The notes under the pieces were generated by a model. It saw only the letters and a list, made by a program, of their open reading frames with translations. It was not told the DNA's origin and did not search any database. From Candidatus Terrybacteria bacterium RIFCSPHIGHO2_01_FULL_48_17 (lineage in GTDB: Bacteria; Patescibacteriota; Minisyncoccia; Terrybacterales; 2-01-FULL-58-14), in contig MHSS01000015.1 in assembly GCA_001822835.1 (NCBI GenBank), forward strand, positions 2,113 through 66,112: 64,000 bases of DNA, given 5' to 3'. A program made the position numbers and the translations under genes. Positions 3,907 to 49,478 of the stretch are shown piece after piece (position 1 is the first letter of the stretch; each line of letters opens with the position of its first letter).

Positions 3907-4908
3907 TTACGTTTCTTTATTTGAAATATTGCGAAGGCGATCAAGTTGATTGGAAAATTTTTCAAGACCGCGCTCGGCATCGTCATACGCGCGTACCGCA
4001 TTACGTAAATGCCCGCCAGCGATCCGAAACCGTTCCCCAAACATGAGAAGCTCCTGGTCAAGGGCTTTTAGGCCCGCAAGAATTTCGCGCGCAGAAGAAG
4101 CAACCTGCATTCCTCGCAAACCAATTAAGATGGTTCGTAAATAAGCGAAAAAAGTGCCGGGGGACATGGGAATAATTGCGCGATCAAAAATCGCATCGGC
4201 AAGATCCGGAAGGGCAATAATCTCTGAATATACGCCTTCGGATGGAATATAGAGCATGGCAAAGTCCGCTGTACCCTCTTGAGGCACAATATATTTTTTC
4301 CTGATTGCCTCTGCGTGTTGCTTCACGACCTGCGTAAATTCCTTTTGCGCATGCTCGCGCGCTTCGGGAGACGAACGCTTCAGACGTTCATACGCTTCCA
4401 TGGGAAATTTTGAGTCGATAGGAATGAGTAATTCACCTGCACGAATCACAAAATCGACCCTTTCCCCGGACCGAAAAGTAAATTGCTTCTGCCAAAGGCC
4501 TGCTTCTTCACCCCCAGGCAGGTGCTGGGCTAAAATATTTTCAAGTAATTTTTCACCCAAAGCTCCACGGACGCGTGGCGGTTGCAAAATCTCCTGAAGT
4601 CGTGCAATATCTTTAGATTGTTCAAGCACTCGGCTTAACGCGGAACGCTGCTCAACCAATTGGTTTGAAACATCACGTATTACATCCTGGGTTGAAGAAT
4701 GCGATCGCTCGGTCATTTGTGCTAAATGCCCAATTCTTCGATCAAGCATCGCAACGGTCTCTGAAATACTTCGGGAAAGTTGTTCAACCTTTCCCTTAAG
4801 CTCTCCGTTCTCACCCTGTTGGCTCCGTCGCTTATCCCAAAGGATAAATGCGGCAACAACTATTGCTACCGCAAGAAAAAAAATAGCTAATGGAAAAACA
4901 AAAGACAT
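3907..4908 (-). CDS. rmuC: DNA recombination protein RmuC
   Basis: Conserved RmuC C-terminal domain. The chosen start, ATG at 4908 (MSFVFPLAIFF...), gives the N-terminal TM helix. The ORF-track TTG extension to 4965 overlaps the upstream gene. Confidence 0.75.
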   Translation of the reverse strand: MSFVFPLAIFFLAVAIVVAAFILWDKRRSQQGENGELKGKVEQLSRSISETVAMLDRRIGHLAQMTERSHSSTQDVIRDVSNQLVEQRSALSRVLEQSKDIARLQEILQPPRVRGALGEKLLENILAQHLPGGEEAGLWQKQFTFRSGERVDFVIRAGELLIPIDSKFPMEAYERLKRSSPEAREHAQKEFTQVVKQHAEAIRKKYIVPQEGTADFAMLYIPSEGVYSEIIALPDLADAIFDRAIIPMSPGTFFAYLRTILIGLRGMQVASSAREILAGLKALDQELLMFGERFRIAGGHLRNAVRAYDDAERGLEKFSNQLDRLRNISNKET

Positions 4909-5688: not shown

Positions 5689-7191
5689 CTAAAAACAGGA
5701 AATAAACTGAAGGGCAAAATTAAATGGAATATTAGATGACGATATATTAAGTTTAGGAGATACTTTGGTCGTAAACAAAGCCGAGTCGTTGATGCGCTCG
5801 TGAATGGATAAATATGCTTCGTCGGTATCTGCAATGCCGGTGATTGAAACACGAGCATCTTGCTGAATTGTTAATTGCTGTAATTGTATGCCCTGGCCGA
5901 GTATCGCGTTTTCTATCCGCGGCAATATATCGGCAAAAGAACAACGAGTGTTTTGTTGAAATGCTTGTCGGGCTATAGCTACAGCACTATTAAACTCTTG
6001 CGCCTGCCCAACAAGCTCTGTAACTTCAGGATTTGTCTTTGCCTGAAGCGCGTCATTGGCCGCCTTTTCTTGAATTGTTACAATTGCAAACGTTGCGGCA
6101 AATATGATGGCACTCACCGCTACACCCAGCGCAATTGTATTTCCCGCAAACCTGATAAAAAATTCCGAGACACTTCGAGAATATGCTTCTTCGGTACGCA
6201 CGGACATAAGATTAACCAAATGATCCTGGCTTCGAGGTATAATTCCCCTCAACGAAGCCCCTCTAATGGCCGCTTTAGAAAGTTCGTGCTCTATGGTGGC
6301 AAAGCTTACGGTAATTCCCAACTGCTCAAGCTCTTGTATCGCCTTTATGGTTGCATCATCAATAAGGCCATCTATCAACATACGACGCGTTGCAATGTGT
6401 TTGGTATGATCTTCGATTTTTAAAAACCGGACAAGCGTAGTCAGCTCGCGCGCAATCATTGCCGCCCGCTCCTCTGGTGTCACTGAATCAATAATCACAT
6501 GATGCGGAAACCTCACTGCATCTCCCTCGATCGCTGCGGCAAGCACTGCATCGGAAAATAGATACGCGACAAAGCCCGGACGGGCAGGATCTTGGGTAAG
6601 CCCGCGGGCCACGGAAAGCATAAGCGGTTCCGCGGCAACCACCCGCAATCCCGCAGAGTGCGCTGCAACAAGATACGGCTCAACGTCTTGTTTCCGCGCT
6701 GCTATAACTACATATTCCTTCATGGCTTCCGTGCCCTCTTGTGTGTTGTGCGCGACCAATTGCCAGTCGATAAATGCTTCTTTTGGCGAAACAGGAAGCA
6801 TGCTCTCTGCCTCCAAACGAAGCATTGAATCAATATCCTCGTTTCGTGTACCAGGAGGAATCGTAACCGTTTTTGCAAAAAGCGGAAGGACGGGCAATGA
6901 GAGTACGACGCTATGAGTGGATAAGGGCATTGGTTTTGCTTTTGTGATTGCCTCTTTCAATGCCATTTCAACTGCTTTCGCATCGATAAGTTTACCGGAA
7001 GAGATGCTGCCAGGCGGCAAAGGTACAGCGCCCTCAGTAACTACTGCCGGTGGAAGATTGGGACCCTGGACAATAAGCTCTGCGACACGAACCCGCGCTT
7101 CTTCAATGGCCACACCGGCGATATGCTCGTGGCCTTGTACGGCCGTAATCAACGCATCAATATATGTTTTTCCAGGAAATCGGAATTTCAT
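5689..7191 (-). CDS. type IV pilus assembly protein PilM fused to PilN
   Basis: 500 aa. The N-terminal region has an actin-like ATPase fold pattern (PilM), followed by a TM helix and a PilN-like coiled-coil/periplasmic domain. Confidence 0.7.
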   Translation of the reverse strand: MKFRFPGKTYIDALITAVQGHEHIAGVAIEEARVRVAELIVQGPNLPPAVVTEGAVPLPPGSISSGKLIDAKAVEMALKEAITKAKPMPLSTHSVVLSLPVLPLFAKTVTIPPGTRNEDIDSMLRLEAESMLPVSPKEAFIDWQLVAHNTQEGTEAMKEYVVIAARKQDVEPYLVAAHSAGLRVVAAEPLMLSVARGLTQDPARPGFVAYLFSDAVLAAAIEGDAVRFPHHVIIDSVTPEERAAMIARELTTLVRFLKIEDHTKHIATRRMLIDGLIDDATIKAIQELEQLGITVSFATIEHELSKAAIRGASLRGIIPRSQDHLVNLMSVRTEEAYSRSVSEFFIRFAGNTIALGVAVSAIIFAATFAIVTIQEKAANDALQAKTNPEVTELVGQAQEFNSAVAIARQAFQQNTRCSFADILPRIENAILGQGIQLQQLTIQQDARVSITGIADTDEAYLSIHERINDSALFTTKVSPKLNISSSNIPFNFALQFISCF

Positions 7192-7215
7192 ATAGTATTG
7201 TATCCTTTCTCCATA

Positions 7216-9744: not shown

Positions 9745-10167
9745 TTATTGACGGTGTAGCTTGCCGCGTTTTATAAGTTCATTAAAAAGCTTATCAACAA
9801 GAACATCGTGGAACGCGTCAAGGACGTATGCAGAATCGATGCTGCGGGCAAGCCGTATAGCTGGTTCAATGCCTTCAGTCAAAGCAATTTGCGCAAGCGC
9901 CACAACCTTCCGTGCGTCTGGCATAGCAGCAATATCGCGCGCATCCGGATGCACAAGAGCTCCTTGCACCGTTTGCTGCGGCATAACGGGTACCGTGGGA
10001 CGTATTCGATGCGACTCTTCCTGCACACGTTCGCGCAATCGTTCTTTTATCTCATCGTGGCGTTCGGGTCTCCCTATCGCCTCTCGATGTTCCCCAAGAA
10101 CTTCTTCCCATCTTGGATGTAAAACTTCCGGCCGCTCACTAGTAGCACGTGGATTTTCATTTGCCAT
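9745..10167 (-). CDS. hypothetical charged protein, first gene of the pilus/ATPase operon
   Basis: Start placed at ATG 10167 (MANENPRAT...), because TGGTATAAT lies 6 nt upstream. The track start at 10194 is TTG. Confidence 0.45.
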   Translation of the reverse strand: MANENPRATSERPEVLHPRWEEVLGEHREAIGRPERHDEIKERLRERVQEESHRIRPTVPVMPQQTVQGALVHPDARDIAAMPDARKVVALAQIALTEGIEPAIRLARSIDSAYVLDAFHDVLVDKLFNELIKRGKLHRQ

Positions 10168-10173
10168 TCTCTT

Positions 10174-10182
10174 ATTATACCA
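10174..10182 (-). promoter_or_regulatory. extended -10 (TGGTATAAT), 6 nt upstream of ATG 10167; leaderless-type promoter
   Basis: Read directly: CCGTGGTATAATAAGAGA-ATG on the minus strand. Confidence 0.5.
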
Positions 10183-10209
10183 CGGATAACCCAATCTTTC
10201 GCTGACTCA

Positions 10210-10218
10210 TGGTATAAT
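10210..10218 (+). promoter_or_regulatory. extended -10 (TGGTATAAT), 7 nt upstream of ATG 10226; leaderless-type promoter, divergent from the previous one
   Basis: Read directly: catGGTATAATaaagttaATGggaaaac. Confidence 0.5.
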
Positions 10219-10225
10219 AAAGTTA

Positions 10226-11779
10226 ATGGGAAAACATACGGTATGGGCGCTGTTGGGCATCATTATTATTGGTGCCATTTTCCGTTTGTTAAATCTCACC
10301 ACTACCCCACCCGGCCTTTGGCCGGATGAGGCCGTAAATGGGCTCAATGCCCTTGAGGCGTTGTCCCAAGGCGACTTTAAAGTATTTTATACCGACAATT
10401 TCGGGCGTGAGGGACTTTTTATTAACCTGCAGGCCTTTTCTATAAGCATTTTTGGCGCAACATCGTGGGCACTCCGCTTTGTGGCGGCTGTTATAGGCAT
10501 CTTTACAGTAGGTGCCCTTTTTTTTGTGGGACGAGAACTTTTCACAAAAACATATCATCCTCACATGACAGCCCTTGTGGCTTCCTTGTTGGGCGCCGTT
10601 TCGTTTTGGCATGTAAACTTTTCGCGAATCGGATTTCGCGCGATTCTTTTGCCGCTTTTTGCATCACTTGCGGTCTGGTGGATGATTTCCGCCATGCGCA
10701 ACCGTTCGCAAATAGCGTTTGCGGCATCTGGATTTATGTACGGAATTTCTCTTTCAACATATATCTCCGCCCGTTTTCTGCCTATTCTTGCGCTCGTGTG
10801 TTTTGTTTATGACCTGTGGCGGGAGCATAAAAACAAGAACGGAGCCCAATGGAAGTCCTTTGTCATTGTCTGGGGATGGTGTTTTATCGGGTTTTTTGTC
10901 GCGGCACTACCGCTTTTGGGATATTTTGCTTATCATCCGGCAGATTTTTTTGGGCGCGCAAATGATGTAGCCGTTTTTGCAGCAGCAGATCCTATCGCCG
11001 AATTTACGCGCTCACTCACAAAAACATTAGGCATGTTTCATGTGGCGGGTGACAATAATTTTCGACATAATCTTGGAGGATCGCCTCAGCTTGATTTATT
11101 GAGCGGTATTCTTTTCCTTACGGGCATCGCAGTTGCTCTATCGCTATTACTGCGCCTGCGAAACGCAAAGGGAAGAAGATTTTATATGGTGGTACTTTTT
11201 GTGTGGTTTGGCCTCATGCTCCTTCCGGGAATCCTTTCTCAAGAAGGCGTACCGCATGCTTTAAGAACACTTGGCGCGATTCCCCCGGTGATGTTAATTG
11301 CGGCACTGGGGTTTGGTTGGCTTGCAGAAAGAACGACGAAAATGTTGGGACGTCAGTGGTCACACATCGCATTAATGGGTTTACTGACTATCGTTTCTGT
11401 TATTAATTTTTACCAATATTTTTTTGTATGGGCCTCACATCCGGAAACACAAAAAGCGTTTCGGTATGATCTTACTGTTATGGCAAAGGTGCTGCGAGAA
11501 CAGCACATATATACTCAAAAAGTTGTTGTCATCAACCAGCCGGGCGCAACGGTTGAAAATTCTTTTATTGAGCTCGCTCCCATACGCTTTTTAGATTATG
11601 CGGATTCGACCATTATCTACAAAGAAAGCACACGGCTTGCGGAAATTATCCCTCAATTTGAAAAAACCATGCTCGTTCCACTCCAAGCAAATGATCAGGA
11701 ATTAGAAGCTTCACTGCGAGCGCTTTTCCCAACGGTAAAACGCAAAGAAACACAAGGAATAGAATACTTCTCACTATAA
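10226..11779 (+). CDS. glycosyltransferase family 39 (ArnT/PMT-like) membrane protein
   Basis: 517 aa with many TM helices and an N-terminal PGLWPDEA motif typical of GT-C/GT39 enzymes. Confidence 0.75.
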   Translation: MGKHTVWALLGIIIIGAIFRLLNLTTTPPGLWPDEAVNGLNALEALSQGDFKVFYTDNFGREGLFINLQAFSISIFGATSWALRFVAAVIGIFTVGALFFVGRELFTKTYHPHMTALVASLLGAVSFWHVNFSRIGFRAILLPLFASLAVWWMISAMRNRSQIAFAASGFMYGISLSTYISARFLPILALVCFVYDLWREHKNKNGAQWKSFVIVWGWCFIGFFVAALPLLGYFAYHPADFFGRANDVAVFAAADPIAEFTRSLTKTLGMFHVAGDNNFRHNLGGSPQLDLLSGILFLTGIAVALSLLLRLRNAKGRRFYMVVLFVWFGLMLLPGILSQEGVPHALRTLGAIPPVMLIAALGFGWLAERTTKMLGRQWSHIALMGLLTIVSVINFYQYFFVWASHPETQKAFRYDLTVMAKVLREQHIYTQKVVVINQPGATVENSFIELAPIRFLDYADSTIIYKESTRLAEIIPQFEKTMLVPLQANDQELEASLRALFPTVKRKETQGIEYFSL

Positions 11780-16345: not shown

Positions 16346-17488
16346 TTAGATTAAAACGCGGGGAAGCAAAGGATTGATACGGCTTAACACTTCGTATGGG
16401 ATCGTTCCAAGTTTCTCGGCAAGCATATCTGCGGAAATCTCATCTTGTGCTTGTTCCCCAATAAGCACTGCCTCATCTCCCATTTTTGCAGCGGTAATCT
16501 GCGTGACATCTACCATGATCATATTCATACAAACCCGGCCTAATACCTTTGCGCGCAATCCTCGTATCAATACCTCGCCAGCGCGAGAAAGCGCACGATC
16601 ATATCCATCAAAATATCCCACAGGTAACACCGCAATGCGGCTATCGCGGTTTACTTTTTCGGAAAGCCCGTAGCCGACCGGTGTTCCCAAAGGCACATTT
16701 TTAACCTGTGCAATTCGTGTTTTCCAGGACAACACCGGCTTTAAGTGTAATTCCTTCCCATGAATTTCGGCAGCTTTTGCAACTTCAGGCGAAGGCCAAA
16801 TGCCATAAAGCGCGATGCCCACGCGCACCAAATCAAAATGAGTTTCTGGGTGTAAAAGCGCTGCGGCAGAGGCCGCCACATGCCGTATCAAGTTCGGGAA
16901 GCCAGTTTTTGCGCTCTCGTTTAGCGCACGCTTAAATTCCGAAAGCTGGGCGCGAAAATAAGAGCGGTCGTGGGTATCTTCAACATTTGCAAGGTGGGTC
17001 GCGATCCCCTCCGGCACAATCCACGAAGAAGTTCGCGCAGCGTTTAATATCTTTGAAACCTCTTCGGGCCACATTCCCTGTCGCGTAGTGCCGGTTTCAA
17101 CCTTTATATGAATTTTTGCCGGTTTTCGTTGCTCAAGGCCAGCTGCAGCAAGACCCAACATAGTATCGTGATCATAGACCACTTGACGCAAGCCCGCGCG
17201 TACAATATCTGCTAAGCGATCCTCCGGAGTCCAGCCCAACACCAATATGGGTGCGGCCACTCCTTTCTCGCGGAGCATTAATCCCTCATCAACCGAGTCA
17301 ACCCCGAACCACTCGGCTTCGTCAGCAAGGAGTTGTGCGACCTCCGATAATCCGTGACCGTAGGCATTTGCTTTAACTACCGCTAAAAAACGCGTTGATG
17401 GCGACAATAATTTTTTAAGCTCCCGGACATTATGCCGTAAAGCATCGCGGTCAATTTCTACCCATGTTCGATGTTGAGAGCTTGACAT
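16346..17488 (-). CDS. alr: alanine racemase
   Basis: 380 aa with AVVKANAYGHG, the PLP-lysine motif of alanine racemase. Confidence 0.85.
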   Translation of the reverse strand: MSSSQHRTWVEIDRDALRHNVRELKKLLSPSTRFLAVVKANAYGHGLSEVAQLLADEAEWFGVDSVDEGLMLREKGVAAPILVLGWTPEDRLADIVRAGLRQVVYDHDTMLGLAAAGLEQRKPAKIHIKVETGTTRQGMWPEEVSKILNAARTSSWIVPEGIATHLANVEDTHDRSYFRAQLSEFKRALNESAKTGFPNLIRHVAASAAALLHPETHFDLVRVGIALYGIWPSPEVAKAAEIHGKELHLKPVLSWKTRIAQVKNVPLGTPVGYGLSEKVNRDSRIAVLPVGYFDGYDRALSRAGEVLIRGLRAKVLGRVCMNMIMVDVTQITAAKMGDEAVLIGEQAQDEISADMLAEKLGTIPYEVLSRINPLLPRVLI

Positions 17489-17509
17489 AGAAATAAGGGT
17501 TTGTATAAT
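17482..17509 (+). promoter_or_regulatory. sigma70-type promoter (TTGACA-N16-TATAAT) for the small membrane protein gene; overlaps the alr start codon
   Basis: cTTGACAtagaaataagggtttgTATAATactg. A leader of about 30 nt follows, with SD aaaaggagagag. Confidence 0.6.
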
Positions 17510-17545
17510 ACTGTTAGTACGTTAACTCAAAAGGAGAGAGAAATA

Positions 17546-17860
17546 ATGGAGCTTACAATAGCGCTTGCAGCTGCGCTGGGATGGCTCGTAGGAACGGTAA
17601 CGGTTTCAGACCTGCTGTGGCACATTGCTTATGATGCTCTAGGAGCTAAACTCGGTCCAAAAGTTGGGTTTGAAACCAACGATCCCAGCAGAGTTTGTCC
17701 CCTGGAGGCAACGTGGGTTGGCAAGATGGCCCTCAATGCCTTCTGGCCCTTGGCTTTAACGGCTGCTATCTTTTTCCTCGCGATTATCTTCATTGGGGCA
17801 ATTGTGGGAACTATTATCATAATAATAACCACTCTTGCCAAGCGACATTCAACAAAGTAA
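17546..17860 (+). CDS. hypothetical small membrane protein
   Basis: Start at ATG 17546 is preceded by AAAGGAGAGAG. Two or three TM helices. Confidence 0.5.
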   Translation: MELTIALAAALGWLVGTVTVSDLLWHIAYDALGAKLGPKVGFETNDPSRVCPLEATWVGKMALNAFWPLALTAAIFFLAIIFIGAIVGTIIIIITTLAKRHSTK

Positions 17861-22034: not shown

Positions 22035-22091
22035 AAATACTACAAAATACGGATCTGTACGAATATACGAATAGGTTTTAACATATAACGA

Positions 22092-24419: not shown

Positions 24420-24504
24420 CCTTTCAAGAATAGCGTATTTATGGGTAAAAATGAAGCGGCGAGCCGCTGAAGCCCGCATTCCCCCATGATACAAAAACTT
24501 GTTT

Positions 24505-28729: not shown

Positions 28730-29128
28730 TTAGGCATCCTTGTCAGATTCCTCGACTGAAACTGCAGCGCTTTCTCGCGGATTCTCATCGACAGCCGTAG
28801 CAACTGCTGTTTCTTCTTGTTGTGATTCTGCCGACTGCGCGCCTGGTACATCTTTTTTCGCCGCGATTGCGTGCACGGGGCGCTTTGGTCCTTCTACAAT
28901 ACCCGCTCGTACCAACAAATTCCAAACGGGACTCGAAACTTGCGCGCCTTCTTTTATGCGGCTTGTTATTCGCTCCTTATTAATCTCGAAGGTTTTTTTA
29001 AGAGGATTATACCAGCCAAATTTTTCTATGTATTTGCCTCGGACTGGTTTTGACCGCTTCGGAACCAGCACCACCCGGAAAGCAGGTTGGTGCCGACGTC
29101 CGAATCTCATAAATCGGATTGTAAGCAT
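28730..29128 (-). CDS. rpsP: 30S ribosomal protein S16 with an acidic C-terminal extension
   Basis: Start MLTIRFMRFGRRHQPAFRVV at 29128. TTGACA-N17-CACAAT ends 8 nt upstream, which fits a leaderless transcript. The track start at 29155 is upstream of that. Confidence 0.85.
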   Translation of the reverse strand: MLTIRFMRFGRRHQPAFRVVLVPKRSKPVRGKYIEKFGWYNPLKKTFEINKERITSRIKEGAQVSSPVWNLLVRAGIVEGPKRPVHAIAAKKDVPGAQSAESQQEETAVATAVDENPRESAAVSVEESDKDA

Positions 29129-29164
29129 CGCAGTACATTGTGAGGCAACATCCAAATACTGTCA

Positions 29165-29195
29165 ATATCAAGAAAAAGCCCGCCGTGTGGCGGGT
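29165..29195 (-). terminator. rho-independent terminator of ftsH
   Basis: Hairpin gcccgcc-gtgt-ggcgggt directly after the ftsH stop, followed by a U-run on the minus strand. Confidence 0.65.
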
Positions 29196-31036
29196 TAGGA
29201 TTGGATAAGTTCTCCGAGAATCCTTTGCAGGTCCTCCCCTTCAAGCGTTTCAACGTCAAGGAGTTCCTGAACAAGACGCTCAAGCGCTTTGCGATGTTTG
29301 TTTAAAACCTCTTCTGCCGTTTTCCTTCCCATATCAACCAACCGAAACACTTCATTATCGATCTGTTCGGCAATATGATCGGAATAATCGCGCTGTTCAG
29401 TAATTTCCTTTCCCAAAAATACCAATTCTTGGCGCCTTCCAAATGTACGCGGACCAAGTGCCTCGCTCATGCCAAAACGCGTTACCATTTGGCGTGCCAA
29501 GTTTGTTGCGCGCTCAAGGTCGTTTTGCGGTCCGGTGGTATGGCCATGTTGTTTTAACAGCAGTTCCTCGGCTACAAGCCCTCCCATCAGCGTTGCAATC
29601 ATATCCTCAAACTGAACTTTGGTATAAAGAGAGCGATCTTCCTCAGAAAGGAAACGGGTGAAGCCGCCGGCGCTGCCTCGCGAAACAATGGTTATCTTAA
29701 CGGGAGGATCGGCATAAGGTAACGCAAAGCCAACGAGTGCATGTCCTGCCTCATGATAAGCAATTATTTTACGCTCTTTTTCGCTTATCACCCTGCTCTT
29801 GCGCTCCGGGCCTGCAATAATTCGATCAATTGCCTCATTGAGTTCGGCCATCGTGATTTTCGGCTTGCCGCGGCGAGCTGTTAAAATTGCTGCTTCATTG
29901 ATAAGATTGGCTAAATCTGCTCCAGAAAAACCGGGTGTCTGTTTTGCAAGCTTCTCAAGATCGCAATCATCAGCAAAAGGTTTTCCTTTTGCGTGTACTA
30001 GAAGAATTGCGTATCGGCCTTTACTATCAGGACGGTCAACCGTGACCTGGCGGTCAAAACGCCCTGGCCGCAACAGTGCGGGGTCAAGAATATCCGGACG
30101 GTTTGTTGCCGCAATTACGATCACATTGGTTGACGTGTCGAAACCATCCATCTCGACAAGAAGCTGATTTAGTGTCTGTTCGCGCTCGTCGTGGCCTCCG
30201 CCAACTCCTGCGCCGCGATGGCGCCCGACCGCATCAATTTCATCGATGAAAACGATACAAGGTTGATTCTTTTTCGCTTGCGCAAAAAGATCCCGCACGC
30301 GCGATGCACCCACTCCCACAAACATTTCGACAAACTGTGATCCCGAAATTTCCCAAAACGGCACCGAGGCCTCGCCCGCCACGGCTTTAGCAAGAAGTGT
30401 TTTGCCGCATCCCGGCGGACCTACCAATAACACGCCTTTTGGAATACGGGCCCCGAGTAACTGGAATTTCTGTGGACTTCGGAGAAACTCAACCACTTCA
30501 GTAAGCTCTTCTTTTGCCTCGTCAACACCTGCAACGTCTTGGAAGGTAACAAAAGGTCGTTTGCCTATCAGCGAGCGTGCGCGGCTTTTGCCAAAATTGG
30601 TTGCCTGGCTGTTTCCACCCTGCGCGCCCCGCAAAACAAAAAAAAGAAAACCCATGATCAAAAGGATTGGCAAAAAGGTAAGAAGAACCTTAAACAATCC
30701 CGACCAAAAGGATCCTTTTTCACGGGCAAAATCATAAGCGATATTATTCTGCCTAAGATCCTTCTGCAACGTTTCCATTGCTTGAGCGTTTATCTCTGTT
30801 TTTGCCGGCTTATCTACAAGGGTGTATTCGGCAATAAACCAGGTAACGTTGCTCTCTTTCAAAATGACCGTAGAGGAAATCTCTTTTGCTTGGATTGCCT
30901 CGGCAAAACGCGAATAAGGCACTTCTTCGGGTTTAGGTTTTGAGCCACCCGAAAGAAGAGGTAATACAAAGAAATATACCAAGAGAATCAAGACGCCAAG
31001 AATGACAAACCTTGAGAACCTACCTCGCCGTCCCAT
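29195..31036 (-). CDS. ftsH: ATP-dependent zinc metalloprotease FtsH
   Basis: Start at 31036 has a perfect AGGAGG SD 6 nt upstream. Two TM helices, AAA+ Walker [12 protein letters not shown], and the HEAGHA zinc motif. Confidence 0.9.
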
Positions 31037-31109
31037 GGGGCACCTCCTGTTTGTATTTTCAAAAAACAAGTGGGTTTATCTTACCACAGGCATATAAAAA
31101 AGTAAACCC

Positions 31110-31154: not shown

Positions 31155-31844
31155 TTATTGCCACCGTTTTTTATGAAGTGCTTCCCGAGCCGCCTCTTGT
31201 TGAGCTTCTTGCTTAGAAAGGCCTTCGCCTTTTGCGATCAGCGTTTCCCCCAAATATACACCAACGCTAAAAGTTTTTGCATGGTCTGGGCCTCGCTCTG
31301 AAATCACCTTATAGGAAGGGGTGGTGCGCATTTTTTCCTGAGCCATTTCCTGAAATTGAGATTTTGGGTCACGGACGGATCCAGATACGAGGATGTCTTC
31401 AAGTTTTGGTAAAAGCGCTTTCCTTAGAAAATCTTTCACGGCATGAAATCCCTGATCAAGATATATTGCCCCCACAATTGCCTCACACGCATTTGCTAAA
31501 ATAACGTCGCGTGCACGACCCACATCCTTTGCTTCTCCCCGAGAAAGGCGGATGACGTCATTTACTTTTAGTTCATGAGCAACATGCGCTAATGTTTCTG
31601 CGCGTACCAGGGCGGCACGCAAATTGGTCAACTCGCCCTCTGGCTTTTCGGGGAAACGCTGGAACAAATATTCCGAGACCGCAAGCTCCAAAACCGCGTC
31701 GCCAAGAAACTCTAACCGTTCATTGTGCGGATATTTCCAACGGGGGTGTTCGTTTAAATACGAACGGTGGGTCAGGGCTTCCTCCAAGAGAACAGGATTT
31801 TTGAAAGAAACCCCGAGCCGCCGCTCAAAATCTGAGATATCCAT
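31155..31844 (-). CDS. rnc: ribonuclease III
   Basis: RNase III signature ERLEFLGDA plus a C-terminal dsRBD. Confidence 0.9.
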   Translation of the reverse strand: MDISDFERRLGVSFKNPVLLEEALTHRSYLNEHPRWKYPHNERLEFLGDAVLELAVSEYLFQRFPEKPEGELTNLRAALVRAETLAHVAHELKVNDVIRLSRGEAKDVGRARDVILANACEAIVGAIYLDQGFHAVKDFLRKALLPKLEDILVSGSVRDPKSQFQEMAQEKMRTTPSYKVISERGPDHAKTFSVGVYLGETLIAKGEGLSKQEAQQEAAREALHKKRWQ

Positions 31845-31945
31845 AGCATTCCTAATAAAAAAGTTTCTATTAGTTTCAATGCATTTCTACAAATTTCTCG
31901 TATTTCTGAAATGTATAGAAACGTGCTGCGCGAAATTTATGGAAA

Positions 31946-32422
31946 TTACTTGTCCTCTGTTTGCTCTTCTTCTTTTTTCTCTTTCACGTGTTCCTTCCCC
32001 GGTTCTCCAATTTCCCGGTAAATCGTTCCCAAAACGCCGTTTACAAAACGACCAGAAGATTCGCCACCAAAGTTTTTGGCAAGCTCAATTGCTTCATTAA
32101 TTGCGACTTTAGGAGGCACGGCCTCGCGATCTCCGAATAAAAGTTCGAAGATGCCGATACGTAGAACATTCCGATCTACCATCGCCACCTGCTCCACGGG
32201 CCATTCCGGGGCTGCCCGAGCAATAATCGAATCGAGCTTTTCCCGCTTTTTTAAAATACCCTTGACGAGATCCTGCGCAAAACCTTCGTCCTCAAGCCCT
32301 GGGGCAAATTCCGCATATGTTTTCTCAAGAAAATCGGACATCTGGGAATCTTCTTTTCCGTTGAAATCCCATGCGTATAATGCCTGCAAGGCAACAGAAC
32401 GGGCAAGGTGTCGAGAAGCCAT
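31946..32422 (-). CDS. nusB: transcription antitermination factor NusB
   Basis: 158 aa with a NusB family pattern and an acidic C-terminal tail. Confidence 0.8.
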
Positions 32423-32530
32423 GTTCCTTAAAAATTTTAATTATTCTAATTTCTAATTGCTCTAATGCTTAGATATTGGAAAATTTCAAACATTCGTTAA
32501 AAATTAGGTCAATTAGAGCAATTGGAGATT

Positions 32531-32827
32531 TTAAAGTTGTGGAGCTTTGTGCGCGGGCACTATTTCTTCTCCTTGGCGCGCCTGACTTTCTGCCTCTGCG
32601 CGAGCAGCTTGTTCTTTTTCCTTCTTTTTGCGCTCCTTTTTTGTAAGTTTCGCAAGCGTATCAATAACTTCTGTAGTGCCATAATATCCGCATCGCCCAC
32701 AGACGAAATGGGAGATTTTCATCGCTTTACAATGGTTACAAACCACAAGTTGCGGCGCCAAAAGCCTAATTTGGCTCCGGCGTCTATTCCTGCGGCCTTT
32801 CGTATGCCGTTGTCGTGCGGTGCTCAT
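32531..32827 (-). CDS. rpmF: 50S ribosomal protein L32 with a Lys/Glu-rich C-terminal extension
   Basis: N-terminal RRNRRRSQ...CxxC...CGRCGYY zinc-ribbon pattern of bL32. It is 98 aa against a typical length of about 57. Confidence 0.75.
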   Translation of the reverse strand: MSTARQRHTKGRRNRRRSQIRLLAPQLVVCNHCKAMKISHFVCGRCGYYGTTEVIDTLAKLTKKERKKKEKEQAARAEAESQARQGEEIVPAHKAPQL

Positions 32828-32860
32828 AAAGGGTACAAGATATAGGGTACAGGGTATAGA

Positions 32861-33511
32861 TTAGTTTTGCAAGCTTTTAAGAAAACTTCTCCGATGGATG
32901 GAACACGGACCGAGTTCTTGTAATCGCCGATAATGTAATCTCGTGCCATACCCTTTGTGTATATCAAAGCCGTACTGGGGAAAATGCTGGTGATGCCGTT
33001 CCATAAGCTTATCGCGATGCACCTTTGCAATAATAGAGGCGGCAGCGATAAGCGAAATCTGCTCGTCCCCCTTAATTACCGTACATTGCCGCAACTGGGA
33101 TGGCGCGTAAAGGGAGCCGTCAAGCAATATAATAGAGTTTAGTCCCGACGCAAGGTCGGGATCCCGACTTCTTTTTTGATAGTTTCGATTGGGGCGTCGG
33201 GAGGAATAGGAATTAGGGAACAATTTATGCAAAACGGCGGCAACAGCACGATTAAGAGCCCTTGTAATCCCTTGTTTATCTATGATTTTTGGGCCAACTG
33301 AAGCTACTGCCCATCGGAAACCCTCATTGCTTTTGATTGTGCAGGAGAGGATTTCGCGCTGCCTTGAAGAAAGACGCTTCGAGTCCTTCAAACGTCCTGA
33401 TCCCTGAACCCTCAATCCTGAACCCCGTTTTGCCGCCACTGCCGCAACTGTAACAGGACCGGCAAGCGGCCCACGCCCAGCTTCATCAATACCAACAATC
33501 CACTGCACCAT
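32861..33511 (-). CDS. rnhB: ribonuclease HII, carrying two GC-rich insertions
   Basis: GIDEAGRGPLAGPV and DSKRLS motifs. The insertions (RGSGLRVQGSG; NSYSSRRPNRNYQKRSRDPDLASGLNS) are encoded by palindromic GC-rich DNA. Confidence 0.85.
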   Translation of the reverse strand: MVQWIVGIDEAGRGPLAGPVTVAAVAAKRGSGLRVQGSGRLKDSKRLSSRQREILSCTIKSNEGFRWAVASVGPKIIDKQGITRALNRAVAAVLHKLFPNSYSSRRPNRNYQKRSRDPDLASGLNSIILLDGSLYAPSQLRQCTVIKGDEQISLIAAASIIAKVHRDKLMERHHQHFPQYGFDIHKGYGTRLHYRRLQELGPCSIHRRSFLKSLQN

Positions 33512-33553
33512 TGTTTTTAATATAGCAGAATTCCTCCCATAGGGAGGAAATAA

Positions 33554-33847: not shown

Positions 33848-33875
33848 TTGTCGAGACAGCTCAATGCCATACAAT
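33848..33875 (+). promoter_or_regulatory. promoter (TTGTCG-N16-TACAAT) ending 6 nt before the dnaE ATG at 33882; leaderless
   Basis: TACAATaaagttATG. The -10 lies inside the track N-terminal extension (33864). Confidence 0.45.
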
Positions 33876-33881
33876 AAAGTT

Positions 33882-36800
33882 ATGGCATCTCGATTCGTCC
33901 ATTTACACGTCCACTCGCACTACTCATTTCTGGACGGACTTGCAAAAATTGATCAACTCGTTGCGCGCGCAAAAGAACTTGGCATGGATGCGCTCGCGAT
34001 CACCGACCACGGCGGCCTTTGGGGCGCCGTTGAGTTTTATAAAAAAGCAAAAGCGCAGGGCATTAAACCAATTATTGGCGCGGAGTTGTATGTCGCTACA
34101 CGTTCGCGTTTTGATCGCGATCCGCAACTTGATACCAGACGCTTTCATCTTACAGTTCTTGCCAAAAACAATATCGGCTACCAAAACTTGGTGAAACTCG
34201 TTACCAAAAGCCAACTAGAAGGTTTTTATTTTAAGCCGCGCGTGGACAAAGAGCTTTTGCGCACCTACCACGAAGGGCTTATTGCTTTATCGGGGTGTCT
34301 GGGAGGAGAAATTCCCCGTGCCATTGAATCGGGCAATATGAAACATGCCAACAATCTGCTTACCGAGTATCTGGATATTTTCGGTCGAGACAATTTTTTT
34401 CTTGAGCTTGGCGCACACAACAACATTCCTCAACAGAAAAAGCTTAATACAAAATTGATAGAACTTGGGAAACAATATAATGTGCCGCTGGTGGCCACAA
34501 ACGACATACATTATGTTTCTGCAGACGATAAAGACGCGCACGAGGTTTTGCTTTCTGTGCAAACCGCTTCGCGTTTTGACGATGAGAGCCGTCTTTCTTT
34601 GAAAACCGACGATTTTTCTTTAAAGTCCGCGGAACAAATGGATGCGTCTTTCCCCAACATGCCCGAGGTATTGAAAGAGAGCGCAAAAATTGCAGAACAA
34701 TGTAATGTTACTTTGCCAATCGGCGCCATTCAGCTTCCAATGTTCCCTGTTCCCGAAGGATACACGCCTGATTCATATCTTAAAAAATTATGCGATGAGG
34801 GACTTACAAAACGCTATGATGCAAATTACCCTCCCCAAGCATTGGAGCGGCTCTCATACGAACTTTCAGTGATTGAAAAAACTGGTTTCGCATCCTACTT
34901 TTTAATCGTGCAAGATTTTGTCAGTTGGGCAAAAGGGCAAGGAATCGTAGTGGGACCAGGACGCGGATCTGCCGCCGGATCATTTGTTGCGTATGTATTG
35001 GGCATCACCAATATTGATCCCCTGCGCTACGAGCTTTTGTTTGAGAGATTCTTAAACCCCGCCCGGGTATCGATGCCTGATATTGATCTTGATTTTGCCG
35101 ATTGGCGCCGCGATGAGGTAATCCAATATCTGCGCCAAAAATATGGCGACGAACACGTTGCCCAAATTGGGACTTTTGGCACCATGGCTGCACGTGCCGT
35201 GGTGCGCGACGCAGGCCGGTCTCTTGGATTCCCTTATAGTTTTTGCGACCGCGTGGCAAAGCTTATCCCTTTTGGCATGACGCTTGAACAAGCACTTAAG
35301 GCCTCCCAAGAACTCAGTCAGGCCTATGAAAACGAAGCTGATGTTGCGCGCCTCGTCGATTCCGGACGAAAACTTGAAGGAGTGGCCCGGCATATTTCAA
35401 CGCATGCGTGTGGGGTCGTCATCTCCAAAGAGCCGCTCACAAAACTGGTTCCACTGCAACACCCATCCCAGTCAGAGGAACACGTCATTTCACAATATGA
35501 AATGCATTCCATCGAAGATCTCGGGCTTTTGAAAATAGATCTGTTGGGCCTTCGGAATCTTTCAATTATTGAAGAAACCATCGGCCGTATCAAAAATACC
35601 TATAGAGAAGAGGTGGACATTGAGCGCTTACCGCTTGATGACGCAAAAACATTTGAGCTATTGCGAACGGCAGACACCACGGGCGTATTTCAATTGGAAG
35701 GCGGGGGCATGCGTAGATATTTAAAGGAACTTGTGCCTACGGAACTGGAAGATATTATTGCGATGATTTCTCTTTATCGCCCAGGTCCTATGGAGTTTAT
35801 CCCCTCCTTCATCAAACGAAAGCACGGAAAAGAGAAAGTGGAATATCTAGATCATGCGCTCGAATCAATACTCAAAAAGACCCATGGCATCGCTGTCTAC
35901 CAAGAACAACTCATGGAAATTGCCAGGCAGCTTGCCGGATTTTCGCTTGCCGAGGCAGATATGCTCCGCAAAGCTGTTGGAAAGAAAATTAAATCGCTTC
36001 TTAATGAGCAACATGAAAAACTTGTTGCCGGAATGATGCGAAACAAGATCACGAAAAATACTGCAGAAAAAATTTGGGAATGGATAATACCGTTCGCGCG
36101 ATATGGTTTTAATCGATCACATGGTGCCTGTTACGCAATGATTGCATATCAAACCGCATGGCTGAAAGCGCATTATCCTTATGAATTTATGGCGTCGCTG
36201 CTTAACCGGGAATATGGCATGGGAACCGATCGGGTTGCGGTTCTTATTCAGGAAGCGCGAGCCCATGAGATTAAAATTTTACCGCCAGATGTGAATGCGT
36301 CACGGGAAGGATTTACAGTTGTATATAAAGAAACTAAAAATCCTGGCGCAATTCGTTTTGGCCTTACTGCGATAAAAAATCTTGGGCATAATGTGGTAAC
36401 AAAAATAATTACTGAACGAGACACGAACGGTGCATATACTTCGCTTGAAAATTTCATAAAACGGATTGCCGGACCGGAATTTACTAAAAAAGCATTGGAA
36501 AGTTTAACGTATGCCGGAGCGCTAGACCAATTTGCGGAACGCAAAGCAATCCTTGAAAGCACGGATCAGATTCTTTCATTCGGAAAAGAAAGCCATAGAA
36601 ACGCACAATCGGGCCAGGGAAGTTTGTTCGACGAAACATCGACAGGAGCGACATTGCGTTTGAAAGAAACGAAGCCGGCAAGCAAACAAGAACGGCTTCG
36701 GTGGGAAAAAGATCATCTTGGGCTTTGGGTTTCCGAACATCCGCTTCGTAGCTATGAACGGCTTCTGGCAACCATTACTAAGCCAATTGAGATTATGCGT

Positions 36801-37091: not shown

Positions 37092-37317
37092 GGCGAGCGC
37101 AACGGCAGGCCTGCTCGCGTCTGCAAGGGATCCTTCCGTTCCTTAAGGCCGCTCGCAGCCCCGCCGCTTGCGCTCTTATGTTACCCTCAGCCTCTTTATA
37201 AAGATGGATGAGAAAAGAGGTAAGAAAGGAAGCCCATGATACGGGCTCTTATATTTTTGACAGAATAATACTAGCAAAGGTATTAGAGAACATTGAAAAG
37301 GAAAAAGGAGGATGGAT

Positions 37318-37545
37318 ATGTATGACTTAATGGGTTTTCCTGAGGAAAATCTACAGCACTCCAGGATGCGGTTTAAACCAAATCCTGAACCCGTCGAAAC
37401 AACTCCCTCCTGTGATCGAGGATCCTGTTCGGGAAGGGGTTATAATTTTTGTTCGGAACATAACACACATCTCTGCAACGGACATTTTGGCTGGCACGTA
37501 AGGATGTTCCACAAAGCGCCCGAATCAGTTCGAGTGCATGGTTAG
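37318..37545 (+). CDS. hypothetical small Cys/His-rich protein (possible zinc ribbon)
   Basis: Strong SD AAAGGAGGA 6 nt before ATG 37318. Motifs CxxxxC...CxxxxxxC...H. It has its own terminator. Confidence 0.4.
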   Translation: MYDLMGFPEENLQHSRMRFKPNPEPVETTPSCDRGSCSGRGYNFCSEHNTHLCNGHFGWHVRMFHKAPESVRVHG

Positions 37546-37571
37546 ACCCCAAAACGGGGTCTTTGTTTTTG
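37545..37571 (+). terminator. rho-independent terminator
   Basis: gacccc-aaaac-ggggtc followed by tttgttttt. Confidence 0.7.
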
Positions 37572-37596
37572 TGCAAACATGTTTTACAATAATCGT

Positions 37597-39348
37597 ATGG
37601 CAAAACAAGAAATAAAACTAGAAACGCTTCGGCATTCGACTGCCCATGTCATGGCAAAGGCAGCAAAGCGCCTCTTCCCTAAAACGGCACTGGGTATCGG
37701 GCCGGTTATTGAAGATGGATTTTACTATGATTTTGATACCAAAAAAGCGATCAGTTCCGACTCATTCCCCCTTATCGAGGAGGAAATGAGGCGCATTATT
37801 GCCGCACACGAACTTTTCAAAAAAGAATATCTCTCGATTTCTCAAGCGCTTGCGCTTTTTAAAAAACTAAAAGAACCCTACAAAATTGAGTTGATTCGCG
37901 ATCTTGCAAAAAAAGGAGCAAAAAAAGTAAGCATTTATCGCACCGGCACAGATTTCCTTGACCTTTGTGCCGGCCCCCATGTACGAAATACTGCCGACAT
38001 TCCTCATAACGCCTTCAAGCTTATAAAAGCCGCCGCAGCATATTGGCGAGGAGATGAAAAAAATCCGCAACTAAAGCGGATCTATGGAACTATTTTCTTT
38101 TCAAATGATAAACTTGCCGGAGAGCTCAACCGCCTGGAGGAAATTGAAAAACGAGATCACAAAAAATTAGGGCGCGATTTGGATTTATTCACGTTTTCGG
38201 AATTGATAGGCAGCGGATTGCCTCTGTGGACCCCCAAAGGCACGATAATAAGAACCTTGCTTGATGAATTTATCTGGAAATTACGTGAAACCCGCGGCTA
38301 CGAACGTGTTGAAGTTCCTCACATCACCAAAAAAGAGCTTTACGAAATAAGCGGTCATTGGGAAAAATTCAAAGATGAGCTTTTTAAAATTACCACTCGC
38401 GAAGGACATCTTTTTGCCATGAAACCGATGAACTGCCCGCATCACATCCAAATCTTCAAACGGCGCCCGTGGAGCTACCGAGAATTACCCCAACGATACG
38501 CAAATACCACAATGGTTTATAGGGACGAACAAACCGGGGAGCTTTCTGGTTTGTCTCGTGTACGCTGTATCACGCAAGATGATGCCCATGTTTTTTGCAG
38601 AAACGGACAGGCAAAAAAAGAAATGATGAATATCTGGGATATCATCGATACTTTCTATGGTGCTTTTGGTTTTGAGCTTACTATTCGCGTCTCGTTGCAC
38701 GACCCCAAAAAACAAAAACGATACCTTGGCGATAAAAAGACGTGGCGGTTAGCCGAAACCGAACTTATCGATCTTGCAAAAAGCCGAGGCGCGAGAGCGC
38801 CGCTTGCACGAGGCGAGGCAGCTTTTTATGGACCCAAAATCGATTTTTTAGCGAAAGATTCCCTTGGACGAAAATGGCAAGTAGCAACGATCCAGCTTGA
38901 TATGAATTTGCCGGAACGATTTGATATTACCTGCATTGACGAACAAGGAAAAACAGAGCGCCTCGTTATGATCCATGCTGCTATCATGGGTTCCATTGAA
39001 CGGTTTCTTTCAATACTCATCGAGCATTTTGCTGGCGATTTTCCCGTGTGGCTTGCTCCGGTGCAAGTACGAATAATCCCAGTATCCGAACGCCATAAAG
39101 ATTATGCCGAAACAGTCAGGACGTTGCTTTCTGAAAAAAACATTCGTGTTGAAGTGGCGTCCGGTGATACAACGATTGGAAAAGCGATACGTTCGGGGGA
39201 ACTCTCAAAAATTCCCTATCTTGCGGTAGTGGGTGATCGGGAAGCTGAGGCGAAAACCGTAAGCGTGAGAGAACGAAAACAAACAGAGTTGCGGAGTATG
39301 AGTCCGCGCGATCTTGCAGAAGTTATCCGCGCAAAACGCCCCTTTTAA
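37597..39348 (+). CDS. thrS: threonine--tRNA ligase lacking the N-terminal TGS domain
   Basis: Editing-domain HxxxH (RHSTAHV), class II catalytic core and the anticodon-binding domain. Start at 37597 is 6 nt after TACAAT (leaderless). The alternative ATG at 37579 would precede the predicted transcription start. Confidence 0.85.
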   Translation: MAKQEIKLETLRHSTAHVMAKAAKRLFPKTALGIGPVIEDGFYYDFDTKKAISSDSFPLIEEEMRRIIAAHELFKKEYLSISQALALFKKLKEPYKIELIRDLAKKGAKKVSIYRTGTDFLDLCAGPHVRNTADIPHNAFKLIKAAAAYWRGDEKNPQLKRIYGTIFFSNDKLAGELNRLEEIEKRDHKKLGRDLDLFTFSELIGSGLPLWTPKGTIIRTLLDEFIWKLRETRGYERVEVPHITKKELYEISGHWEKFKDELFKITTREGHLFAMKPMNCPHHIQIFKRRPWSYRELPQRYANTTMVYRDEQTGELSGLSRVRCITQDDAHVFCRNGQAKKEMMNIWDIIDTFYGAFGFELTIRVSLHDPKKQKRYLGDKKTWRLAETELIDLAKSRGARAPLARGEAAFYGPKIDFLAKDSLGRKWQVATIQLDMNLPERFDITCIDEQGKTERLVMIHAAIMGSIERFLSILIEHFAGDFPVWLAPVQVRIIPVSERHKDYAETVRTLLSEKNIRVEVASGDTTIGKAIRSGELSKIPYLAVVGDREAEAKTVSVRERKQTELRSMSPRDLAEVIRAKRPF

Positions 39349-39707: not shown

Positions 39708-39739
39708 CCAATTCCTTTTGTGTAAAAACTACCTCTAGC

Positions 39740-42594: not shown

Positions 42595-42739
42595 TTTCCC
42601 CTCCCTTCTCAAAGAACTAGATATTTTGGTAATAAAATTATAACGCAAATTGTCCAATATGTAAAGGCGGGGCCTTGTAAAAAGATACGGGTAGTGATAC
42701 AATCATTGCAGATCTTTGAGAGAAGAAAGGGCTGCTACG

Positions 42740-43318: not shown

Positions 43319-43360
43319 CCGGACCCTTACTTTTTATAAAGAGAGTGATATAGTTTGTCT

Positions 43361-43963
43361 ATGCAAAAATATATTGCACTTTTTGGTGGCGCCTTTGATC
43401 CACCGCATCTCGGGCATCTTACAGCTATTCGCCAAATTTTTGATGCAAAAAGATTCGACGGGGTTTGGGTCGTACCAAGCGGAATGCGACCCGACAAACA
43501 ATCACATGCATCACCCCAAGATCGCCTCGCGATGACCCGCTTACTTGTGAAGCATGGGTTTGACACACATGAACCGGTATTTGTCAAAACGCACCTCGTA
43601 GACGCTCCCGACTCTTATCCATTTACCATACAAGAACTTGAATATCTTAAAACCCAACATCCCAATACGGCATTTACTGTTGCGATCGGATCGGACCAAG
43701 CACAAGCGCTTCACCAATGGCACAATCCAGAAAAATTATGCGCGCTTGCCGATATCCTCGTTATTGTAAGGGATGGACGGCCTACAACTATTTCATTCCC
43801 CTGTAATACCACAATACTTGACCCCAAAGATAATATATGGTTAAATATATCAAGTACGGAATTACGGTGGCGTATAGCGCACGAGAAGCCGATTTTCGGG
43901 CTTACGCTGCTGCCCATTGCCGAGTTCATTGATAACAAAAAACTCTATACAAAGGAGGCCTGA
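43361..43963 (+). CDS. nadD: nicotinate-nucleotide adenylyltransferase
   Basis: GGAFDPPHLGH (H/TxGH) nucleotidyltransferase motif. Confidence 0.8.
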   Translation: MQKYIALFGGAFDPPHLGHLTAIRQIFDAKRFDGVWVVPSGMRPDKQSHASPQDRLAMTRLLVKHGFDTHEPVFVKTHLVDAPDSYPFTIQELEYLKTQHPNTAFTVAIGSDQAQALHQWHNPEKLCALADILVIVRDGRPTTISFPCNTTILDPKDNIWLNISSTELRWRIAHEKPIFGLTLLPIAEFIDNKKLYTKEA

Positions 43964-48914: not shown

Positions 48915-49478
48915 CTATTCAAGCTGCACCGAACCTTCAGCTCGGGTACCGCCTTTCATGAACACCTGATAGCGTGCTTGTATTTGATTTCCCAAAATGG
49001 TCCCGTTTACCTCCAAGCGGTCAATCCCCGGCGCTTCAACGCTCGGTGCATTCATGGTAAATTCTCCAGAAGGTTTAATGGATATAGTAAAGTCCCCAAA
49101 AAGGTCGTCGTGGTCAGAGAAATAAAGTTCTGCCGGGCCATATGTGCCAGCAAAGGTTTTGGGATCCGGATCAACTAAACCAAAAACCATCCCTCCCACA
49201 TCTACTGTAAACGAAGCGGCTCCATCAGGATTAACAATGATATTAGCCGAGATACCGCCTTTGGTGCTAAAAGTAGTATTTGTCCACGTTCCCTGCCGTT
49301 CTCCCGCAAAACTTGAGAATTGGTCATATCCTACCGCGGGTTGCAATAGAGGAGCTTCACTGGCGGGCTCTTGTTTTTTCGAGGAGCCGCCCCCACCCGC
49401 TAAAATGATGACCAAAATAAGAAGCGCCCCAGCGGCTATCGTAAAATACAATAAATTCTTTTTTGAGAAGTATTTCAT
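48915..49478 (-). CDS. hypothetical secreted/membrane-anchored protein
   Basis: 187 aa with an N-terminal TM/signal segment and a Gly-rich linker. TATAATAAAGATAT lies immediately upstream of the ATG. Confidence 0.5.
   Translation of the reverse strand: MKYFSKKNLLYFTIAAGALLILVIILAGGGGSSKKQEPASEAPLLQPAVGYDQFSSFAGERQGTWTNTTFSTKGGISANIIVNPDGAASFTVDVGGMVFGLVDPDPKTFAGTYGPAELYFSDHDDLFGDFTISIKPSGEFTMNAPSVEAPGIDRLEVNGTILGNQIQARYQVFMKGGTRAEGSVQLE

Follow-up and report, generated by a model that had tools for sequence, protein, structure and literature searches.

The cI mRNA that phage lambda makes from PRM is transcribed from the A of its AUG and is independent of a Shine-Dalgarno (SD) sequence, which makes it the classic leaderless mRNA of Escherichia coli. 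Mycobacterial leaderless genes use GTG as well as ATG, and the -10 element of high-GC Actinobacteria is a degenerate TANNNT. Among bacterial genomes classified by GeneMarkS-2, those of group C place a Pribnow box 6-8 nt ahead of their gene starts, the accepted leaderless signature (PMC6028130). Group C holds 1028 of 4769 bacteria (about 22%), mainly Actinobacteria and Deinococcus-Thermus, with 25-50% of operons predicted to be leaderless, and the GeneMarkS-2 predictions were compared with differential RNA sequencing for Mycobacterium tuberculosis and Deinococcus deserti (PMC6028130). The motif of group B, found in Bacteroidetes, belongs to leadered mRNAs and stands before internal as well as first genes (PMC6028130). 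Here we analyze a recurrent -10 box, (TGn)TAYAAT, placed 5-8 nt before ATG start codons in a 64,000-nt stretch (the window) of a Candidatus Terrybacteria genome, a lineage of the candidate phyla radiation (CPR), with the spacer between two divergent genes at 10168-10225 as the focal site. The ThrS encoded at 37597-39348 matches that of Candidatus Terrybacteria bacterium RIFCSPHIGHO2_01_FULL_48_17, a metagenome-assembled genome of the Parcubacteria group of CPR/Patescibacteria, with 100% identity along all 583 aa.

The arrangement resembles group C, as known from M. tuberculosis, M. smegmatis, Corynebacterium glutamicum, Streptomyces coelicolor and D. deserti, in that a -10 box lies 6-8 nt before the start codon, in the window mostly at transcription-unit heads, no SD is present, and SD-led genes coexist with such genes. 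It differs in lineage and in the A-rich stretch that follows the box in the window. Unlike in the high-GC Actinobacteria, the -10 box is close to the TATAAT consensus and often preceded by TGn or TRTGn, and the positional peak is confined to ATG. The TG one base 5' of the hexamer and the weak or absent -35 element are shared with the extended -10 (TGn/TRTGn) sigma-70/sigma-A promoters of E. coli and Gram-positives; the present boxes are in addition locked to the start codon, at 5-9 nt. The lambda cI gene is an isolated regulatory example in a genome dominated by SD sequences; in contrast, the layout found here recurs and includes the housekeeping genes dnaE, thrS, ligA and rnhB. As in Bacteroidetes group B, A/T-rich sequence takes the place of the SD before the start, but the boxes of the window and of other CPR loci have promoter features, and Bacteroidota loci have neither a sharp peak at 6-7 nt nor TGn. 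The mechanism is thus already known, and what is described is its probable extension to a new lineage, not a new system. In the literature that was searched, no paper ties leaderless mRNAs to CPR, Patescibacteria, Parcubacteria or Saccharibacteria.

The focal spacer measures 58 nt and separates the divergent genes for GT39 and for a protein of 140 aa. Both of its strands carry the sequence TGGTATAAT:

10210-10218, plus strand: extended -10 box TGGTATAAT of the GT39 (PMT_2) gene, 7 nt 5' of the ATG
10226-10228, plus strand: ATG of the GT39 gene (517 aa); public annotation agrees on this start, and the N-terminus MGKH is kept in the related locus L083
10174-10182, minus strand: extended -10 box TGGTATAAT of the 140-aa gene, 6 nt 5' of the ATG
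10165-10167, minus strand: ATG of the 140-aa gene (hypothetical protein), which heads a cluster that continues with a VirD4-like ATPase and pilM

The two boxes are 27 nt apart, and reading the sequence around the pair revealed no recognizable -35 element. From the position of its box, transcription of the GT39 gene would start at the ATG or 1 nt upstream. The spacer would then be a compact bidirectional promoter pair, with the GT39 gene on one side and the 140-aa/VirD4-like ATPase/pilM cluster on the other.

Syntenic focal loci were obtained from two relatives, one represented by L083 and L084 (66% GT39 identity) and the other, another Terrybacteria metagenome-assembled genome, by L085 (41%). 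Both boxes are kept exactly as TGGTATAAT in L083/L084, with gaps between hexamer and ATG of 8 nt for the GT39 gene and 7 nt for the 140-aa gene. The corresponding elements in L085 are TGCTACTAT-N7-ATG for GT39 and TGGTAAAAT-N8-ATG for the 140-aa gene. The stretch between the boxes is 27 nt in L083, as in the window, and longer in L085, and in both cases its sequence is unrelated to that of the window. As judged from these alignments, the conservation is phylogenetic footprinting of both boxes together with their distances to the ATG. The start codons are conserved as well: the N-termini of the 140-aa proteins align (MANENPR, MAKEHAQ and MAEKPR), and the called start of GT39 in L083 lies too far downstream, since the conserved MGKH beside the box puts it at the same position as in the window. 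Scanning genome and metagenome contigs with the GT39 protein alone identified no close relatives, and the relatives were reached through protein searches and contig look-ups. Public contigs of the same organism (10 loci compared of 24) all span the focal spacer with 99.97-100% identity; none of them stops within it in the manner of a contig built from transcripts, and they yield no polymorphism information.

A recurrent -10 box 5-8 nt before ATG had been proposed in an earlier note on this sequence, on the basis of eight quoted strings, all of which are present at the positions and on the strands given there. Counting bears out the recurrence. The pattern TAYAAT-N5..8-ATG occurs 13 times in the window, against 4.2 +/- 2.0 in 300 dinucleotide-preserving shuffles (maximum 10). 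The TAYAAT hexamer itself is not over-represented, with 66 copies on both strands and about 88 expected, an estimate from base composition, and the signal is therefore positional. The window has a G+C content of 45-50% throughout. A gap profile was calculated for the first or second ATG of all open reading frames (ORFs) of at least 80 aa in six frames, independent of annotated starts. For this profile, a -10-like hexamer was defined as TANNNT with at least five of six matches to TATAAT, and gaps of 12-35 nt served as background. The hexamers peak at gap 6 (7 matches) and gap 7 (3 matches), and gaps 5-8 together contain 13 of them where 2.7 are expected (Poisson P = 5e-6). The peak is confined to ATG, no -10 peak being present for GTG and TTG starts in the gap profile. 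The note had suggested a genome-wide motif search against shuffled controls; within the window, such a search gave enrichment just upstream of ATG, and the same peak appeared in 25 other CPR loci described below.

One conceivable artefact was rejected: if the in-frame TAA of TATAAT had produced the peak by defining which ATG counts as the first, frame reasoning predicts gaps of 2, 5, 8 and 11, not 6-7.

Extended forms of the box are also frequent, TGNTAYAAT being found 9 times with 3.5 expected and TAYAATAA 14 times with 4.4 expected, a number reached in 0 of 100 shuffles. The AAA run that had been described as following the box is thus over-represented, although its tie to the layout is partial, with 7 of the 14 copies at promoter-ATG cases. 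Rfam at the gathering threshold reported three tRNAs only in the window, and no known RNA element accounts for the boxes. About 44 of 67 genes with curated starts head a transcription unit, defined as being divergent from the neighboring gene or having at least 40 nt upstream. The signature is present at 13 of these 44 heads under relaxed criteria and at about 10 under strict ones (about 23-30%), and 13 of the 15 candidates in the window are at such heads. An SD scan found none before the starts at 10167, 10226, 33882, 37597, 43361, 49478, 51154, 60021 and 62916; the exception is pilM, with AGGA 11 nt upstream.

These observations make it likely that (TGn)TAYAAT-N5-8-ATG represents sigma-A promoters that start transcription at or near the AUG, alongside SD-led genes. 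They would be promoters of the housekeeping sigma-A (sigma-70) type, for the most part extended -10 promoters whose -35 element is weak or lacking. Where transcription begins and how translation is initiated we infer as follows: RNA polymerase would start at the A of the ATG or about 1-3 nt upstream, and the resulting mRNAs, without an SD or a usable 5' leader, would have to rely on leaderless translation, with ribosomes binding the 5'-terminal AUG.

The boxes themselves have the properties of promoters. When the boxes at gaps 5-8 are pooled over the window, the relatives and the other CPR loci, 32 of 65 have TGn in front, compared with none of 41 boxes in Bacteroidota; among the 8 examples of the earlier note TGn is found in 4, and 6 of the TGNTAYAAT sites are promoter-consistent. 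In 85 aligned boxes, T at -3 (66%) and G at -2 (61%) are accompanied by a T/G preference at -5/-4, giving TRTGn. The -35 element is weak in the aligned set, with a mean best match to TTGACA of 2.75 out of 6 versus 2.4-2.5 at shifted controls. By these sequence characteristics, TGn/TRTGn is a promoter feature and not a ribosome-binding feature. Where the gap is 6 nt, a pyrimidine stands immediately 5' of the ATG in 29 of 36 cases and a G in only one. Start sites follow the Y(-1)R(+1) rule, and such a pyrimidine is what this rule predicts if the A of the ATG is +1. The 6-7 nt at which the distance between the -10 box and the ATG peaks equals the canonical distance from -10 to +1, and bacterial transcription generally starts 7 bp downstream of the -10 (PMC12641261). 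Furthermore, no room would be left for a leader: the terminator hairpin ahead of thrS ends 22 nt short of its -10 box and the one ahead of rpsP 13 nt short of its -35, and the transcripts would therefore begin within a few bases before the ATG. The divergent ATGs of the focal pair, too, have only 58 nt between them. The leaderless interpretation of the earlier note accordingly gains support from the gap of 6-7 nt, TGn, the restriction to ATG, the pyrimidine before it, the adjacent terminators and the conservation.

The same layout, complete or in part, was found at the following genes of the window:

60027-60035, minus strand: ligA, extended -10 box TGTTATAAT, with a gap of 5 nt to the ATG at 60021 and of 11 nt to the one at 60015
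33848-33884, plus strand: dnaE, TTGTCG-N16-TACAAT-AAAGTT-ATG; the NCBI start is 33882
37544-37599, plus strand: thrS, terminator hairpin 37544-37562 followed by a T-run, TACAAT at 37585-37590, 6 nt, ATG at 37597
49476-49492, minus strand: gene for a 187-aa membrane or secreted protein, TATAAT-N8-ATG, without TGn
33509-33524, minus strand: rnhB (RNase HII), TATATT-N7-ATG, with a hairpin upstream
43346-43363, plus strand: nadD-type cytidylyltransferase-like gene, TGATATAGT-N6-ATG
62914-62931, minus strand: 129-aa gene, TGGTACACT-N6-ATG, with a weaker hexamer (4/6) and TGn present
51152-51190, minus strand: highly acidic 41-aa ORF, TTGTCA-N17-TGATATAAT-N7-ATG, with a (TGa)TATAAT box
29126-29165, minus strand: rpsP, TTGACA-N17-CACAAT-N8-ATG, with a terminator (29194-29179) shortly upstream
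7189-7202, minus strand: pilM, TACAAT-N5-ATG, in a within-operon spacer of 24 nt after the upstream stop, without TGn; doubtful
24477-24491, minus strand: lysS, TATCAT-N6-ATG, 25 nt past the upstream stop, without TGn; doubtful

Four of these extend the earlier list of examples, namely rnhB (33511), the nadD-like gene (43361), the 41-aa ORF (51154) and the 129-aa gene (62916). From that list, pilM and rpsP are doubtful, their layouts not being conserved. Less convincing, and likewise new to the list, are lysS (24479), the gene of a Crp-family regulator (3860, TGATATAAG) and an rdgB-like gene (22697, TAAGAT). Pfam supports the assignments of GT39 (PMT_2), LigA, DnaE, PilM, S16, RNase HII, FtsH, NAPRTase (pncB) and the methyltransferase, and gave no match for the 140-aa protein or for the 187-aa protein that had been called secreted. 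The 41-aa ORF is called by several public pipelines, not by NCBI.

The promoter of the 41-aa ORF stands back to back with that of a 471-aa gene on the plus strand (51152-51253); both are near consensus, and the two have -35 hexamer positions in common. The 471-aa gene (start 51251) has TTGACA-N17-TATACT at 51184-51212 and a leader of about 33 nt with GGAG.

The block rpsP-ftsH-rnc-nusB-rnhB-dnaE-thrS-miaA is syntenic in L001 (72% ThrS identity) and L002 (66%), which allowed a comparison of several layouts. For thrS, TACAAT-aatcgt-ATG in the window corresponds to TACAAT-gagagc-ATG in L001 and to TATAAT-N7-ATG in L002. The dnaE gene of L001 has TACAAT-AAAGAT-ATG, and dnaE in the CPR loci L014, L021, L022, L028 and L004 carries TGnTAnnnT at gaps 6-9. 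The site orthologous to that of rnhB in L001 reads TACAAT-N6-GTG. The box of ligA has a G+C-rich hairpin and a T-run directly upstream, as read from the sequence.

If the boxes are promoters, translation could nevertheless begin at a downstream in-frame start, in which case the annotated N-terminus would be a 5' leader. We regard this as improbable. It draws on disagreement about some starts: the two ATG codons of ligA are 6 nt apart and NCBI takes the second (690 aa, two codons later than the 692 aa of other sources), gene callers split between 1069 and 1075 aa for dnaE, and for thrS of L002 the callers disagree as well, the called start being about 11 codons too far upstream. Against it, R12, H13 and S14 of ThrS are invariant in a 30-sequence alignment and precede the next ATG, which is codon 19, so the thrS start cannot be that ATG. 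The N-termini of GT39 and of the 140-aa protein are conserved from the first residues in the relatives. No SD is present in the 60 nt before the next candidate starts of thrS and dnaE, and none was flagged at the candidate starts of these two genes up to 120 nt from the first one. A downstream start also leaves the gap-specific enrichment of ATG unexplained. Public starts match for GT39 (517 aa), the 140-aa gene, S16 (132 aa), the 187-aa gene, PilM (500 aa), RNase HII (216 aa) and thrS (583 aa), and the NCBI start of dnaE (1069 aa) matches too. The start codons that the motif had been used to select, dnaE 33882, thrS 37597 and 10167 of the 140-aa gene, thus agree with the NCBI annotation, with the ThrS residues and with the N-termini of homologues.

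Genes of the other type are also present in the window. Two representative layouts are:

31034-31048, minus strand: ftsH, AGGAGGT 5 nt before the ATG, the SD mode
17482-17548, plus strand: consensus promoter TTGACA-N16-TATAAT, leader of about 30 nt with AAGGAG, ATG at 17546

The SD of ftsH is kept in L001 (GGAGG), and strong SD sequences also precede pncB (AGGAGG), the methyltransferase gene at 40830 (AGGAG) and the gene at 52703 (AGGAGG). The coexistence of two initiation modes suggested earlier is borne out in this respect, with SD sequences at ftsH, pncB and 40830 beside genes of the leaderless type. The sequence TGTTATAAT is also found at 49934-49942, here as part of a leadered promoter whose leader measures about 27 nt.

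Other gene starts show neither layout. Several transcription-unit heads (e.g., 925, 17488 and 39740) have neither an SD nor a box at gaps 5-8. The divergent pairs at 39708-39739, 887-924 and 42703-42739 have only 32-38 nt between the genes, and their promoters must therefore sit within the neighboring coding sequence.

To see how far the layout extends, we examined loci from a ThrS-alignment scan of one-genome-per-species contigs. Among the matches listed, 25 loci (368 kb) are from CPR and 47 (768 kb) from Bacteroidota; none of those listed is from Terrybacteria. The CPR loci are the CPR-labelled subset of L003-L028, L035, L037, L055, L073, L080 and L082, and their labels include Paceibacterota/Parcubacteria, Saccharibacteria, Yanofskybacteria, Doudnabacteria, Peribacteria, Falkowbacteria and Kaiserbacteria. 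They contain 28 matches at gap 6 and 15 at gap 7, with a background of 4.4 per gap, and gaps 5-8 together have 51 matches versus 17.7 expected (P = 8e-11). The 47 Bacteroidota loci show a marginal excess at gaps 5-8 (41 versus 29.7, P = 0.03) without a sharp peak. The layout is carried by dnaE and thrS in several CPR classes, and about 17% of long genes heading transcription units have the signature in the 25-locus sample. Judging from these sequences, the chances are about even that leaderless initiation is a major lineage-wide expression mode across CPR/Patescibacteria and not a quirk of a single genome.

Two further features of the CPR sample stand apart from this peak. A gap-9 class of boxes has 17 matches versus a background of about 4.4; these are mostly TGn-bearing and would give leaders of 2-3 nt. 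The loci L035 and L080, both labelled Saccharibacteria, are rich in TGnTATAAT-N6-ATG, with 5 copies per about 21 kb.

A second alternative concerns the function of the box in RNA. The mRNAs could be leadered transcripts from promoters farther upstream, and TATAAT(AAA) could be a non-SD ribosome-binding region or unstructured enhancer, like that of the group B Bacteroidetes. The A/U-rich character of the block and the over-representation of TAYAATAA would fit such a role, as would the pilM and lysS matches in very short operon spacers. In addition, no more than 48% of Parcubacteria had a detectable anti-SD motif (Tsurumaki et al., 2022; PMC9297842), so non-SD initiation must exist there. However, a ribosome-binding region does not account for TGn/TRTGn exactly one base 5' of the hexamer, for a sharp peak at gaps 6-7 with a pyrimidine before ATG and none for GTG/TTG, or for terminators directly upstream of thrS and rpsP. 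The Bacteroidota controls, in which such an element is expected, have neither the sharp peak nor TGn. The distribution over operons points the same way for TGn. Among ORFs of at least 250 aa, matches with TGn gather at transcription-unit heads (17 of 30) and are scarce at operon-internal starts (1 of 6), where operon-internal means a start within 30 nt of an upstream stop on the same strand; when the cutoff was lowered to 150 aa, spurious ORFs confounded the comparison. We therefore consider a ribosome-binding role of the box quite unlikely. That the boxes are merely chance TATAAT-like hexamers in A/T-rich upstream regions is least credible of all: the TAYAAT total is not raised, generic promoter scans are at shuffle level and a few listed cases (29110, 10565 and 45379) are probably chance, but the positional enrichment in the window and in the other CPR loci, a composite count above all 300 shuffles and the persistence of boxes across relatives of 41-72% identity within scrambled spacers all speak against it.

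Several observations weigh against the proposal that the boxes are sigma-A promoters of leaderless mRNAs. Gaps of 7-9 nt may leave 1-3 leader bases, not zero. A generic sigma-70 scan of the window for TTGACA-N16-18-TATAAT was not above shuffles (20 versus 29, 32 versus 27 and 30 versus 27) and is informative only in its top matches, and -35 support is weak. In rpsP, TTGACA-N17 is perfect but the -10 is CACAAT and the layout is not kept in L001, which leaves it, by its sequence, an uncertain though plausible case of a 0-2 nt leader. The pilM box is not conserved, L083/L084 having TACAAG with AGGA 4 nt before the ATG, and the lysS box is of the same doubtful kind. Finally, the raw rate of matches in ORFs of at least 250 aa is alike at operon-internal starts (6 of 38) and at transcription-unit heads (30 of 174), in a small sample; the internal matches, which include pilM and lysS, are doubtful.

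Some other features of the window were noted in passing. A 15-mer, ATTCGTATATTCGTA, occurs exactly three times, at 22058-22072 (minus strand), 61771-61785 (minus strand) and 61812-61826 (plus strand). It is part of an element of about 40 nt, ATTCGTATATTCGTAM-N5-6-CGTAYTTYGYAGTAYT, which lies just upstream of serS and, as a divergent pair, in the spacer 61731-61868. The element is also present upstream of efp in L083 (gene start 12079, minus strand), and its sequence and placement suggest that it may be an operator or a promoter module. At 31800-32000 (minus strand), covering the 3' end of nusB, the nusB-rnc spacer and the first 45 nt or so of rnc, an island of about 200 nt is 95-100% identical to L001 (about 4200-4400); the flanking genes are only about 70-80% identical, and the island is absent from L002. 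Folding of the spacer RNA gives a pair of hairpins (-21.1 kcal/mol, z = -2.7). Either recent recombination or a structured leader of rnc, used in RNase III autoregulation, may account for the island. Two small ORFs were also found: a 98-aa L32-like ORF (start 32827, minus strand) within 32423-32860, where L002 has rpmF, and a 77-aa Cys/His-rich ORF (start 37312, plus strand) within 37092-37596, between dnaE and thrS.

The motif has practical value for annotation, since it fixes disputed start codons in dnaE (1069 or 1075 aa), GT39 of L083 and thrS of L002. It also offers a usable promoter model, TRTGnTAYAAT without a -35 element, for the mostly uncultivated CPR genomes. In CPR bacteria, bS21 is often absent and bS1 is shortened (PMC9297842). 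If true, a lineage-wide leaderless mode would fit this reduced translation apparatus and would partly answer the question how Parcubacteria that lack the anti-SD start translation. A large share of leaderless genes would be a concrete, testable explanation of translation initiation in CPR bacteria, given their pared-down ribosomes.

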